This document shows, piece by piece, positions 1,422 through 16,800 of a stretch of DNA of 17,104 bases. Position 1 is the stretch's first letter, and each line of letters opens with the position of its first letter. The translations under genes were made by a program, and so were the position numbers. The DNA is from a virus (lineage: Duplodnaviria > Heunggongvirae > Uroviricota > Caudoviricetes): IMG/VR virus record IMGVR_UViG_2534681701_000012; one strand, written 5' to 3'. The notes beneath the pieces are model-generated. The model saw nothing but the letters and a program-made list of their open reading frames with translations, made no database searches and had not been told where the DNA came from.

Positions 1422-3365
1422 TTAAAAATCAGCCTGACTCGGGATCAGTTTTTGCCAGATAACTGAAACGTATTTTGCCTGGTAACGGGCGTCATCAAGT
1501 GCATTATGGCGCTCACCTTCGAATGGAATAGCCGTTCTGGCATCGAAGTCTATGGCTTTCCCCAGCTCAACGATTGTGCGTACATCGCGATCGTTGTAGT
1601 AACGCCACGGGCAGGGGATCCCCTGCCGTTCGTATGAACGGCGCAAAATCGTGTTGTCGAAGTTGGCTCCATTTCCCCAAACCTGAACAAAAAATTCACC
1701 GGAGTTTTCGTCGATAAATTCCCGCAATTGTAACAGTGCATCATCTAACGGGATTTCATCGGTCATAATGGCAGATTGCGCTTCGCGTGATTGCTTAAGC
1801 CACCATTTAATGGTGTCCCGATCAATGACTCCGCCAGCAGTTTCCAGATCGATAGTCTTACTAAATTCCGGTCCCATATCTCCGGTTTGCGGATCGAAAA
1901 ATATTGCACCTATTGAGATGATCGGGGCATCAGGATTTTTTCCCATGGTTTCAAGGTCGATCATTAGATGGTCACACGTCCTGCTGGTGGATGTGATTTC
2001 TTGATGACCGTTCACCTTAATTGAGTGATCTGCCGTCTCGCCAGTTTCATTATCGCTATCGTGATGCTGATTGCCGTCAGTGTTCTCCTTGTGTGGATGT
2101 TCAGCGCCTTCCATTTCCTCCGGATCATCTTCCTGAACTTCAACCTGATACTCTTCATCGAATGTTTCCTGGTATGTTGCGTCGCCCATCACCGCGCCAC
2201 AATCAGGGCAGTTGCCGCCGCCGGTCTGACCGCAGGCGGTGCAGACTTTTTCCACTTCCTGTTGCGCCACTGGTTCAGGCTGTTTCGTTTCTGGCTCGTT
2301 TTGTAACGCATTTGGGCTGTTTTGTTCCGCTTTCTGGCCGTTCTGTTCCGTTTCTTGCTGGTTCTGATTCACTGAATCGCGGGTTTCAATCCCCTTCACC
2401 CATTTCGGATCATTCGGGTCGCTAATCCCTGCAACAAATTCACCACGTGATACAGCAAGCAACTTATTGGCGTCAGGCTGGCTGATATTGGCTGCCTGCA
2501 TAATTTTGTTTACTTCGTCAGCGGTAACTTTTACCGGCTCTGGTTGTGCGATCGTGTCAGATGCACCAGTATTTTGTTGTGAACCTGAGTACGTGCCGTT
2601 TTTACGTGCGAAGTATTCCTCTTTTGTGATTTCCGTAGCTCCCAGGGCCAGTGCTTTTTCCAGACCAGAAAGTTTGTTTGCGCGACCGTATTTTTCGCCG
2701 TCCTTATCGGTGAAAAGGAAGTAGAACGGTCCCTCACGCTCTACAGATGGTTCGTCTTCCACTTCGCATTCGGTTTTTTCGTTGTCCGGCATTGCCGTTT
2801 CCACTGCATCAGTTTCTGGTACTGGTGACGGGAGAGTACCAGCTGTGCCCTGATTTGTTCCTTCGTCATCTTCAAACACGCCCTTGGTAGTCAGGTATTC
2901 AGTGATGTATTTGTTCAGTGCTACGGGATCTTTGTGAATGTCGATCGGACGCTCACGGACAAGGCCAAAAATAGTCTGACGGTCGTAGCGAACGGCATCG
3001 GGTTGTTTGCGCATTGATGCGGAAATGCGCTTCCAGTCTTCGCGATCTTTGTCGATAACTTCATTTTTTGCCCAGCGATGGATGCTGCCGTCAATGTTTC
3101 CGGTATCAATATCGCCAGGCCAGAGAGCGTAGGCCAGTTCTTCATCCAGCGTTTTCCATGTCTGCTTGTATTCGCGACAAATGGCGGCAGTGACTGGGTT
3201 GATTTTTCCTGCTGAGTTTTCAGTGTTCTGTTGATTGACTCTGGCGCTGGCGAGATCAACAACAGACGTGTATTTTCCAGTCTCTTTGCGCTCTGCGTCC
3301 TGCCGTTTTTTCCAGTTACTTTTTCCAGTTACGTAATTCAGCCTGAATTTCGGGCCATTTGGCAC
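1422..3365 (-). CDS. Putative 3'-5' exonuclease (DnaQ/DEDDh domain at C-terminus) with zinc-ribbon and acidic linker
   Basis: 647-aa ORF. C-terminal ~190 aa carry Exo I/II/III motifs (MIDLETMG, WGNGANFD, HNALDDARY). Central CTACGQTGGGNCPDCG is a CxxC...CxxC motif. Long D/E/Q-rich low-complexity middle region. The 5' end overlaps the upstream ORF by 50 nt. Confidence 0.8.
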   Translation of the reverse strand: MPNGPKFRLNYVTGKSNWKKRQDAERKETGKYTSVVDLASARVNQQNTENSAGKINPVTAAICREYKQTWKTLDEELAYALWPGDIDTGNIDGSIHRWAKNEVIDKDREDWKRISASMRKQPDAVRYDRQTIFGLVRERPIDIHKDPVALNKYITEYLTTKGVFEDDEGTNQGTAGTLPSPVPETDAVETAMPDNEKTECEVEDEPSVEREGPFYFLFTDKDGEKYGRANKLSGLEKALALGATEITKEEYFARKNGTYSGSQQNTGASDTIAQPEPVKVTADEVNKIMQAANISQPDANKLLAVSRGEFVAGISDPNDPKWVKGIETRDSVNQNQQETEQNGQKAEQNSPNALQNEPETKQPEPVAQQEVEKVCTACGQTGGGNCPDCGAVMGDATYQETFDEEYQVEVQEDDPEEMEGAEHPHKENTDGNQHHDSDNETGETADHSIKVNGHQEITSTSRTCDHLMIDLETMGKNPDAPIISIGAIFFDPQTGDMGPEFSKTIDLETAGGVIDRDTIKWWLKQSREAQSAIMTDEIPLDDALLQLREFIDENSGEFFVQVWGNGANFDNTILRRSYERQGIPCPWRYYNDRDVRTIVELGKAIDFDARTAIPFEGERHNALDDARYQAKYVSVIWQKLIPSQADF

Positions 3366-7406: not shown

Positions 7407-8447
7407 ATGGCTAATGCCTGGCTCAGGTTATGGCATGACATGCCAAATGATCCTAAGTGGCGAACAATTTCCAGGGTGTCAGGACAGCCAATTGCAACAG
7501 TGATGGCGGTGTATATCCACCTTCTGGTGAGCGCGTCACGAAATGTCACGACATGTCACGGCGTGTCACTACGTGGTCACATTGATGTCACGACGGAAGA
7601 TTTAGCAAGTGCGCTTGATGTGACGGAAGAAGTAATTGATTCAATTTTACAGGCAATGCAGGGGCGGGTACTTGATGGAGATTTAATCACCGGATGGGAA
7701 AAACGCCAGGTACTGAAAGAGGACAATGGCAACGTTTCACAAACCGCGAAATCCCCGGCAGAGCGCAAGAGAGCGCAGCGCGAGAGGGAAAAATTACGAA
7801 AACAGAATGAGGGGTGTCACGACGAGTCACGCATATGTCACGACATGTCACGACGAGTCACGACAGATAAAGATACAGATAAAGAATTAAACCCCACACA
7901 TAACGCGCACGTGCGCGAGAGTGCTCCGACCAGTGAGTCGAGTGGTACGCCGTTGCAGGCAGCAGAACCTGCATCCCTGGATGGACTGAGCGAACCCATC
8001 GGGAAATTTCCGATGGTCGATGACTGGCATCCGTCGCCGGATTTTCGACGACGGGCTGCGTTGTGGGGGATGGCTTTGCCGGAGCCGGAATTTACACCTG
8101 CTGAACTTGCCGCTTTCTGGGACTACTGGGCAGCGGAGGGGAAAGTTTTCACGCAGGTTCAGTGGGAGCAGAAATTCGCCCGTCACGTAAATCACGTCAG
8201 GGCGCAGGTTAAGCCAGTCAGCAAGGGGGTAAACCATGCAGCAGCACCAGGTGGCACCGCATCACGGGCAGTTCAGGAAATTCGGGCAGCACGTGAGCAG
8301 TGGGAACGTGAAAACGGATTTATCAGCGACGGAAACGGTCTGGAAGCTGTGGGAACTCATGGGGGAGGTTTATTCGAACCGCTGGACCCAGAAGAACGGG
8401 GCCGCACCTTCGAAGCTCTGGATTGCACAGATTGGCGCGATGACTGA
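7407..8447 (+). CDS. Replication initiator / replisome organiser (functional analogue of lambda O)
   Basis: N-terminal MANAWLRLWHDMPNDPKW fits the phage replisome-organiser N-terminal motif. Iteron clusters lie inside the ORF and a P-like gene follows. Start taken at ATG 7407 (GAGGTG Shine-Dalgarno) rather than GTG 7401. The 3' end is uncertain because of the long overlap with the next gene. Confidence 0.75.
   Translation: MANAWLRLWHDMPNDPKWRTISRVSGQPIATVMAVYIHLLVSASRNVTTCHGVSLRGHIDVTTEDLASALDVTEEVIDSILQAMQGRVLDGDLITGWEKRQVLKEDNGNVSQTAKSPAERKRAQREREKLRKQNEGCHDESRICHDMSRRVTTDKDTDKELNPTHNAHVRESAPTSESSGTPLQAAEPASLDGLSEPIGKFPMVDDWHPSPDFRRRAALWGMALPEPEFTPAELAAFWDYWAAEGKVFTQVQWEQKFARHVNHVRAQVKPVSKGVNHAAAPGGTASRAVQEIRAAREQWERENGFISDGNGLEAVGTHGGGLFEPLDPEERGRTFEALDCTDWRDD
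7535..7893. repeat. Putative replication origin: two iteron clusters plus AT-rich tract inside the O-like gene
   Basis: GTCAC(G/T) repeated 6 times at 7535-7591 and 5 times at 7815-7861, spaced 10-11 bp (one helical turn). Second cluster is followed by AGATAAAGATACAGATAAAGAATTAAA. Confidence 0.6.
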
Positions 8448-8933: not shown

Positions 8934-9687
8934 ATGGAGACTGTTTTTGACGCACTGAAAGCGATGGGAAAAGCCACGTCGGTAGAGCTGGCTGCGCGAC
9001 TTGATATCAGTCGTGAAGAAGTGCTGAACGAACTATGGGAACTGAAAAAGGCTGGTTTCGTTGATAAAAGCGCGTACACCTGGCGTGTGGCTGATAACAA
9101 CGTTCAGCAGGAACAGCCAGCGCAGGCAGAACTGCCGGAAGAAACCACCACAGCAACAGTAGCGAAAATCTCAGAGTGCGATTTAACCGCAACGATTGAA
9201 CAACGCGGACCACAAACGGCGGATGAACTGGCTACGTTTTTTCGGCATCACATCACGCAAAGTGGCTTCAACGCTGGCAATGGCAATCAGTAAAGGTCGT
9301 CTGATTCGCGTTAATCAGAACGGTAAATTTCGTTACTGCATGCCGGGCGATAATTTACCAGCAGAGCCGAAAGCTGCATCGGTAGCGGAAACTGATGGTA
9401 AAGCCTTTCCTCAGCCAGCCGGTGTTGCGTTACCAGTACTGGAAGCTGCAACACAGGAAGATATTAAAACCGAAACTGTGGCGGACATTGTGCAGTCGTT
9501 GCCATCGTTTACTGAAACGCAAGCGGATAACCTGATTTTACCATCGCTGCATATAGCAAATCGTGAACTGCGTCGGGCGAAAAGTCATGTCCAGAAGTGG
9601 GAACGAGTCTGCACCGCGCTGCGGGAGCTGAACAAGCACCGGGATATTCTTCGGGATATTACCGCGACCGGAGAGCTGCAGCGGTGA
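8934..9687 (+). pseudogene. Tandem winged-helix protein gene split by a 1-nt frameshift in a T6 run (possibly DUF1627-type)
   Basis: ORF 8934-9293 (GGGAGG Shine-Dalgarno) and ORF 9196-9687 overlap in different frames. Reading through T6 at 9237-9242 as T5 joins ...TADELATFF to [23 protein letters not shown], a second copy of the N-terminal wHTH-like segment [30 protein letters not shown]. Fused product would be about 251 aa. Confidence 0.55.
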
Positions 9688-15117: not shown

Positions 15118-15329
15118 ATGGGTATGGATGACAGCACTCTGCTGAGGAACTCTTCACTTTTTATTGCTTATATGGGCTGTCTTGGATGGGGAAGCGCTTA
15201 TTTCTATGGATGGGGGACTTCCTTTTATTATGGCTTTCCATGGTGGATCGTCGGGGCTGGCGTTGATGATGTGGCCCGAAGTTTGTTTTATGCTGTGAGC
15301 GTTATCGTTATATTCCTTACTGGATGGGG
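15118..15329 (+). pseudogene. 5' fragment of an aromatic/glycine-rich membrane protein gene, truncated by IS1
   Basis: ORF 15118-15351 runs into the IS1 left inverted repeat, so its last codons (GGMLPTY) and stop are IS1-derived. Hydrophobic W/G/Y/F-rich sequence. Start codon weakly supported. Confidence 0.35.
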
Positions 15330-15384
15330 GGGGATGCTGCCAACTTACTGATTTAGTGTATGATGGTGTTTTTGAGGTGCTCCA

Positions 15385-15660
15385 GTGGCTTCTGTTTCTA
15401 TCAGCTGTCCCTCCTGTTCAGCTACTGACGGGGTGGTGCGTAACGGCAAAAGCACTGCCGGACATCAGCGCTATCTCTGCTCTCACTGCCGTAAAACATG
15501 GCAACTGCAGTTCACTTACACTGCTTCTCAACCCGGTACGCACCAGAAAATCATTGATATGGCCATGAATGGCGTTGGATGCCGGGCAACAGCCCGCATT
15601 ATGGGCGTTGGCCTCAACACGATTTTACGTCACTTAAAAAACTCAGGCCGCAGTCGGTAA
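15385..15660 (+). CDS. insA: IS1 InsA
   Basis: 91-aa product [42 protein letters not shown]... matches IS1 InsA (zinc finger plus HTH). Confidence 0.9.
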
Positions 15661-16082
15661 CCTCGCGCATACAGCCGGGCAGTGACGTCATCGTCTGCGC
15701 GGAAATGGACGAACAGTGGGGCTATGTCGGGGCTAAATCGCGCCAGCGCTGGCTGTTTTACGCGTATGACAGGCTCCGGAAGACGGTTGTTGCGCACGTA
15801 TTCGGTGAACGCACTATGGCGACGCTGGGGCGTCTTATGAGCCTGCTGTCACCCTTTGACGTGGTGATATGGATGACGGATGGCTGGCCGCTGTATGAAT
15901 CCCGCCTGAAGGGAAAGCTGCACGTAATCAGCAAGCGATATACGCAGCGAATTGAGCGGCATAACCTGAATCTGAGGCAGCACCTGGCACGGCTGGGACG
16001 GAAGTCGCTGTCGTTCTCAAAATCGGTGGAGCTGCATGACAAAGTCATCGGGCATTATCTGAACATAAAACACTATCAATAA
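15579..16082 (+). CDS. insB: IS1 InsB reading frame (expressed as InsAB' transposase by -1 frameshift)
   Basis: Open -1 frame overlapping the insA 3' end; contains the [22 protein letters not shown]...[10 protein letters not shown] region of IS1 transposase. Slippery A6C site at 15634-15642. Confidence 0.85.
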
Positions 16083-16098
16083 GTTAGAGTCATTACCG

Positions 16099-16800
16099 GC
16101 TACATCGACAGTAATTCCAGGAGATATCACCACGCTAAAGGGAGATGTCAGTAAAACTAAGGAAGATATTTCCTCAATTAACGGAAAAGTATCAACGCTT
16201 CAGACTGATATGACCAGTACAAAGCAGGATATCAGTACCAGATACACAAAAACTGAAGTTGATAATAAGCTGAAAAACAAACTGGAAGTGAATGCTTTGG
16301 AAAGCGGTAATTATGGTGGAGATTTTTACCCGCTGACTGGTCGTGAAGCATTTTATTTATGGAATTTGGGCACGACTACAGCGGCGGCAAACCTTTATCT
16401 TAATCCTGACCCTGCAATTTCGTCTGTACTGCGGTCAACATCGTCTATTCGCTATAAACATTCAGTAGAGACGATAGATTCAGAGCACGCCGATCTCATT
16501 TTCAAGATGCGCCCTGTGTGGTACAGGTCGCAATGCGAAAATGACAGGCGCGATTGGGGATTCTATGGATTGATTGCCGAGGAAGTAGGAGAAATTGCCC
16601 CTCAGTTTGTTCACTGGCGACCAGCCAACGAAGATGATGCACCGGAAACCATTTCCAGCAATGGCCTTGTTGCCGAAGGTGTAATGTACGAACGTCTGGT
16701 TGTTCCACTGATTCACCATATCCAGAAACTGACTGAAAGAGTTGATGAACTTGAGTCAGAATTGAAGTTGTTATCAACTTCCCAAAGCGATATCGGATAA
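16099..16800 (+). pseudogene. 3' fragment of a tail-fibre gene (C-terminal intramolecular-chaperone / S74-like domain)
   Basis: The frame is open from the IS1 right end with no start context. Product has tail-fibre-like heptad repeats (TLKGDVSKTKEDISSINGKVSTLQTDMTSTKQDIS) followed by a C-terminal domain (ESGNYGGDFYPLTGREAFYLWNLG...GLIAEEVGEIAPQFVHWR...ERVDELESELK) resembling auto-cleaving tail-fibre chaperone domains. Confidence 0.65.

Follow-up and report, generated by a model that had tools for sequence, protein, structure and literature searches.

The window analysed here is a stretch of DNA of 17,104 nucleotides that belongs to a lambdoid prophage integrated beside ompW and is 100% identical, over all 17,104 bases, to contig AQET01000028.1 of assembly GCA_000356165.2 (L008). 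On its plus strand, two open reading frames (ORFs) overlap in adjacent frames. The upstream ORF (8934-9293) starts with ATG, ends with a TAA stop codon at 9291-9293 and encodes 119 aa, and the downstream ORF (9196-9687), which is read in the +1 frame relative to the first, encodes 163 aa when it is opened mechanically at a TTG codon. A TTTTTT run sits exactly at 9237-9242. The original prediction had placed a single-base frameshift in this run and proposed that it splits a tandem winged-helix gene; its coordinates for the ORFs and the run were exact, and the proposal proved correct on every point tested. The length of the run alone is unremarkable, since the window holds 37 homopolymer runs of six or more. 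When one T is removed, as the prediction had suggested, the segment ...TADELATFF is joined to the downstream frame in a continuous ORF of 250 aa (8934-9687, plus strand), and the product is 100% identical to WP_032218143.1, which is encoded with T5 in two complete genomes. The intact allele reads ACG TTT TTC GGC (T-F-F-G), and the T6 run at 9237-9242 is this T5 run plus one T, a frameshifting insertion. The 5' fragment therefore consists of 103 native residues followed by a 16-aa out-of-frame tail, and the 3' remainder (9244-9687, plus strand) specifies native G104-R250 and the stop codon in the +1 frame.

The repaired protein matched Pfam DUF1627 (PF07789) over profile positions 1-155 of 155 (E = 1.3e-96, 321.1 bits, against a gathering score of 28.1 bits); the match covers aa 88-242, so that the junction falls inside it. 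The 3' fragment alone still scored 297.6 bits (E = 2.2e-89, profile positions 15-155), and the 5' fragment alone scored 13.8 bits, below the gathering score. The repaired protein also gave an end-to-end match to phrog_630 (E = 2.9e-129). The two adjacent-frame ORFs are thus halves of one member of a well-populated family, beyond what chance would produce. The position of the gene, downstream of DnaT-like and P genes, agrees with the synteny of the DUF1627/YdaW family, and the single protein of ~240-270 aa that characterizes the family is interrupted here by the T6 frameshift; hence the window copy is a disrupted DUF1627/YdaW member, a pseudogene. The exact 119-aa product of the 5' fragment is on deposit, for example as EMW34140.1 ('putative DNA-binding protein'). 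The 163-aa TTG-started ORF had no exact match in the protein collection, because gene callers begin the 3' piece at ATG 9280 and report 135 aa. A scan for promoters and terminators between 8700 and 10100 gave counts equal to the shuffle expectation and nothing relevant to the gene.

The family is very common in Escherichia coli. The 801-bp region around the gene matched 2,691 of 5,426 complete E. coli genomes, approximately half, and all matching copies are annotated as 'DUF1627 domain-containing protein' and adjoin a replication P or YdaV gene. Each of the five closest copies, which were fetched, is one intact CDS of 248-250 aa with T5 at the site, and two of the five encode WP_032218143.1. 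A collection of 5.8 billion proteins yielded 2,539 homologs, of which the best 120 are each a single protein 243-296 aa long, and in a library of representatives at 50% identity (182 representatives) full-length members extend to ~26% identity; the short representatives in this library are contig-end partials, chimeras, or products of other frameshifts. A comparison of T5 with T6 among orthologs had been proposed as a check, and every close relative examined was intact with T5. The converse possibility raised with it, that orthologs are naturally two separate genes, found no counterpart, as no natural split-gene arrangement occurs among the 2,539 homologs or the 182 representatives. The gene is intact also in sequenced phages, namely vB_EcoS-type phages, Rac-SA53, 'PPompW', and Stx2a phages. 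The ydaW gene of the K-12 Rac prophage was considered as a comparison pseudogene and dropped, the DH5alpha-labelled record holding an intact copy of 253 aa. A family alignment showed three conserved blocks separated by variable linkers. A literature search on DUF1627 returned no functional study; one paper uses DUF1627 only as a synteny marker.

Many other DUF1627 copies on record are independently broken, among them P0153, P0159, P0164, P0173, P0177, and P0205, and the out-of-frame tails of such copies begin at about aa 52, 68, 73, 92, 97, and 157. In P0159, the frameshift lies a few codons from the site described here on a different (ATLFG) allele and enters the same alternative frame (...FNAGNGNQ). 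P0154 and P0156 are also among the disrupted or chimeric DUF1627 genes on record, and in two disrupted or chimeric DUF1627 proteins unrelated N-termini are fused at aa ~94 and ~109.

The original prediction had described the region at the frameshift as a second copy of the N-terminal winged helix-turn-helix-like domain, and this part of the claim held at the level of profiles and folds and failed at that of pairwise sequence. When the N-terminal and second domains were compared by BLASTP, no alignment appeared even at E <= 100, which indicates that the duplication is ancient and meant that the claim needed profile and fold evidence. By profile-profile comparison (hhalign), the N-terminal block (aa 2-54) and the middle block (aa 82-138) aligned over their full lengths (E = 7e-8, probability 94.6%), and control comparisons of both blocks with the C-terminal block were null. 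A phmmer search of the repaired protein against PDB sequences found nothing significant (best E = 0.16), and all matches to Pfam HTH families fell under their gathering scores, including those of HTH_20, TrmB, and MarR_2 at aa 4-46. For an AlphaFold model, P0017 served as the target, together with 43 aligned sequences; this protein shares 98% identity with the repaired one, and its numbering agrees through the junction. The model contains two domains of high confidence (pLDDT 94-98 at aa 4-52 and aa 81-135), and both follow the winged-helix topology H1-S1-H2-H3-S2-S3, so that two copies are present in the model of P0017. Winged helix 1 (aa 4-52; 8943-9089, plus strand) is modelled as H4-11, H16-23, H27-39, E43-46, and E49-52 and survives whole in the 5' fragment. 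Winged helix 2 (aa 81-135; 9174-9339, plus strand) is modelled as H81-91, H96-103, H107-119, E124-128, and E131-135. It is followed by a disordered linker and then by a long helix at aa 205-248. This C-terminal helix (aa ~205-248; 9547-9684, plus strand; H205-234 and H236-248, pLDDT 93-95) coincides with the conserved C-terminal block of the family alignment (...EIRRTK..L..LE.LR...), lies out of frame with the 5' fragment, and is a possible oligomerization element according to the model.

A Foldseek search of the model against PDB returned tandem winged-helix proteins as top matches, namely ScpB (3w6j_E, 2z99, and 4i98_C), ESCRT-II, SelB, and UFL1, and among the tight single-domain matches were FeoC (4awx_B, 58 residues superposed at rmsd 1.1 A) as well as MarR and Z-alpha domains (1.2-2 A). 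ScpB shares two consecutive winged-helix domains with the DUF1627 family (~150 columns, E = 3e-4 to 3e-3), but the TM-scores are low (0.2-0.3), the identity is 12-17%, and the linker and C-terminus are different; the likeness is one of architecture only and not evidence for a condensin-related function. Together with the profile comparison, the model and its fold matches support the description of the DUF1627 family as a protein with two tandem winged-helix domains, a DNA-binding type of fold, and a C-terminal helix. Winged helix 2 also showed a weak likeness to Ren of phage lambda. The profile phrog_142 ('Ren-like exclusion protein') matched winged helix 2 weakly (E = 5.4e-5), with no stretch passing alone, and in hhalign lambda Ren (NP_040633.1, aa 4-60) aligned with aa 81-136 of the family, again weakly (E = 3e-5, probability 73%, 14% identity). 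The ren gene (L028 1681-1971) occupies the same slot directly after the P replication gene. Ren is, however, a single-domain protein of 96 aa, whereas the DUF1627 family adds the N-terminal winged helix, a long linker, and the C-terminal helix. Judged from these weak sequence matches, the similarity is a lead rather than a claim of membership, and a Ren-like second domain in the ren slot may serve as a starting hypothesis for the function of the DUF1627 family.

F103 is the last native residue before the frameshift, and the break interrupts winged helix 2 in the turn that connects its helix 2 (aa 96-103) to the recognition helix (aa 107-119). What the 119-aa stub retains is thus winged helix 1, the linker, and half of winged helix 2, to which 16 nonsense residues are appended; in the T6 allele, the correct frame is lost for the second recognition helix, for the wing, and for the C-terminal helix. 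Four codons are candidate restarts for the 3' part (TTG 9196, ATG 9223, GTG 9262, and ATG 9280), none of which is preceded by a convincing Shine-Dalgarno sequence; ATG 9280 lies 11 nt ahead of the stop codon of the stub.

The T6 allele recurs. The exact 119-aa product appears in 39 index blocks, and it was read on 24 or more contigs, some of them from several NCBI assemblies and others from the raw runs ERR4899612 and SRR446791 as re-assembled in Logan. At the DNA level, all 10 loci fetched through the 119-aa product have T6. When 6.8 kb was aligned with the T5 relatives L001 and L002, no gap other than the added T was present, so that indel noise is not a feature of the assembly. Across 6.5 kb aligned for 11 T6 and 11 T5 loci, three private SNPs (7356C, 8118T, and 12419T) accompany T6 without exception, and the 22 loci separate into a single T6 clade that is free of T5 copies and a remainder that is free of T6. 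L019 and L026, the T5 prophages closest to this clade, share the ompW integration site and differ by 5-6 SNPs. A search with a 71-nt probe that had the run at its centre gave no exact T6 copy in the 5,426 complete E. coli genomes; no record reached 99%, and the best matches, at 98.6%, differ by the single gap. The sister assemblies L009-L013 are near-identical to the window, and the few SNPs that separate them from it (for example at 2254, 4682, 12527, 8499, and 11985) are almost all A>C or T>G; real divergence is a less likely source of this bias than an artefact of sequencing or assembly, and the conclusion on T6 is unaffected.

The prophage carries further lesions. In the sublineage of the window, a perfect 13-nt tandem duplication (TTTTTCCAGTTAC x2) at 3306-3331 frameshifts a minus-strand exonuclease gene (YdfE_N/YdfE_C/Rv2179c-like), whose 824-aa product, intact in L006, L007, and L014, is broken into 647 + 197 aa. 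This sublineage also gained an IS1 element (InsA/InsB; window ~15330-16100), which is inserted in a TfpB-like gene and cuts it from 237 to 75 aa; a G8 run at 15326-15333 arises where the target ...GGATGGGG meets the IS1 end. Downstream of IS1 lies a Peptidase_S74-like tail-fibre fragment, and its sequence had no counterpart in 20 kb from L007, a relative without the IS. The arrangement suggests that an IS1-associated deletion or rearrangement may have taken out lysis and late genes. An independent 10-nt deletion in L006 (GCA_049980085.1), equivalent to 7835-7844 of the window, splits the DnaT-like replication gene, reducing 346 aa to 157 + 200 aa. L006, L007, and L014 have T6 and lack both the 13-nt duplication and IS1, and L007 and L014 have none of the three lesions and keep T6. 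Because T6 is kept across sublineages with and without the other lesions, it is the oldest of them and has been stably inherited. The same replication/nin module, with an identical intact DUF1627 allele, was also seen at two or more integration sites (L018-L024 versus L019, L026, and L027), beside ompW/yciC and beside an ABC-transporter permease gene (BPD_transp_1). The two prophage versions differ in their integrases and late regions, with a Q-type antiterminator and methyltransferase in one and Antiterm/TfpB in the other; such sharing of a module is typical lambdoid mosaicism.

These observations bear on two other explanations that the original prediction had offered beside an inactivating mutation, namely a sequencing error and a slippage-dependent expression switch. 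Homopolymer indels are a classic type of sequencing error, and T6 was found in 0 of the 5,426 complete E. coli genomes, as would be expected if the true sequence were T5 and the gene intact. T6 was nevertheless read at each of the 10 loci fetched, whose sequences derive from different NCBI assemblies and from raw reads re-assembled independently in Logan; with at least 11 independently assembled T6 loci, the sublineages that differ by IS1, the 13-nt duplication, and the 10-nt deletion all carry it, and against the nearest complete genomes it is the sole indel in 6.8 kb. A site-specific miscall would not be linked to SNPs, and T6 is linked to three of them across loci; sequencing or assembly error is therefore rejected and has almost no probability. 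T5 in this lineage would have meant simply an intact gene, and no copy sampled from the T6 lineage shows it. A reversible, phase-variable switch, in which the T tract often gains or loses a base and the gene is turned on and off in populations, is suggested by the position of the lesion in a mononucleotide tract, where a change of one base restores the frame exactly. Contingency loci, however, are generally known to use tracts longer than 5-6 T. In addition, tract length is not interspersed among near-identical strains, the 11 T6 and 11 T5 loci separating cleanly with the three linked SNPs and without revertants, although the intact allele was sampled in 10 of its 263 index blocks, which leaves room for rare revertants inside the T6 clade. 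T6 also stayed fixed while the clade gained SNPs, IS1, and two other indels. Nor is the tract conserved, as the Rac-type allele reads ACG TTG TTC GGT (T-L-F-G) at the same codons and has no T run, and another allele reads ATLFG. With T6 monophyletic and absent from the 5,426 complete genomes, a switch is as extremely improbable as a reading error. The remaining reading, an inactivating mutation, agrees with the single origin of T6 and with T5 in all intact relatives.

Two remaining alternatives accept the insertion and concern what is still made from the gene. The mutant mRNA reads ACG_UUU_UUU_CGG at the site and contains UUU_C followed by an Arg CGN codon. Passages of Atkins et al. (PMC5009743) describe UUU_Ynn as especially prone to +1 frameshifting in bacteria, give UCC_UUU_CGU as the +1 cassette of influenza, and provide a precedent for a 'savior indel' with low-level compensatory frameshifting. 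If tRNA-Phe moved by +1 from the second UUU to UUC while CGG occupied the A site, the product would read ...TFFGITS..., the same as wild type, and RNA polymerase dropping a U would likewise restore the frame, so that inactivation may be incomplete, and a low level of the native 250-aa protein could still be biologically relevant to the lysogen ('pseudo-pseudogene'). The shift-prone UUU_Y tetranucleotide, however, was made by the mutation and is private to one clade, so that nothing has been selected for, and neither a shift site nor a two-frame arrangement is conserved in the orthologs, all of which are single-frame. The motif is also commonplace, with 12 other in-frame TTT_Y sites in ten neighbouring genes. 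CGG accounts for 30 of 146 Arg codons locally, and this usage lends no support to a role for it as a 'hungry codon' that stimulates +1 shifting. Moreover, no stimulatory element was seen at the shift site, either an upstream Shine-Dalgarno-like sequence at the right spacing or an A-site stop codon, and the prophage is visibly decaying; leaky recoding of biological consequence is thus improbable. The other alternative is a functional split, in which the 119-aa stub and a re-initiated C-terminal piece of 135 aa are both made and are active together or separately. Winged helix 1 is complete in the stub, both pieces are called by gene callers, and ATG 9280 overlaps the end of the first ORF in a geometry that permits termination-reinitiation, so that coupled re-initiation at this codon is conceivable from the sequence. 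Against this, the break between helix 2 and the recognition helix destroys winged helix 2 in both pieces, no restart codon has a Shine-Dalgarno sequence ahead of it, and the family contains no two-gene arrangement; we regard a functional split as very improbable.

Taking these results together, we conclude that the locus is very probably a lineage-specific pseudogene, produced by the insertion of one T in the T5 run of a DUF1627/YdaW-family gene in the ompW lambdoid prophage. The T5 run comprises two Phe codons and the first base of the Gly codon after them, and replication slippage is the most likely cause of the added T. The shift in the turn of the second helix-turn-helix would leave the 119-aa stub as the main product, and a stub without the second recognition helix, the wing, and the conserved C-terminal helix would be expected to have lost its function; the gene would then be dispensable for the lysogen. 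The mutation arose once and has been passed on vertically as the earliest of several inactivating lesions in a decaying prophage. The significance of the finding beyond annotation is small. The locus should be annotated as one frameshifted DUF1627/YdaW-family pseudogene instead of two genes, and the T insertion together with the three linked SNPs is a clean clonal marker of the ompW-prophage lineage. As a by-product, the analysis gives a structural description of a very common, uncharacterized prophage family.

Compared with its intact relative WP_032218143.1 (PF07789; 'YdaW family' in phage records; phrog_630), the window copy is the same in 250 of 250 residues after removal of one T and lies in the same slot, immediately after the replication P or YdaV gene, but it has T6 rather than T5 and is split into ORFs of 119 aa and 135 or 163 aa. 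The mutant mRNA (UUU_UUU_CGG) resembles the UUU_Ynn sites of Yersinia YopN-TyeA and influenza PA-X (UCC_UUU_CGU), yet those sites are conserved and give rise to an alternative product with a function, whereas the site in the window is a clade-private accident at which shifting is hypothetical. A close parallel is with homopolymer-indel pseudogenes in cryptic prophages: there too, an indel of one base in a short mononucleotide run has become fixed in one clone, and neighbouring genes show IS insertions and small duplications or deletions. Nothing material differs between those pseudogenes and the present gene, and the lesion belongs to the most familiar class of bacterial pseudogenization, one that is ordinary and already known.
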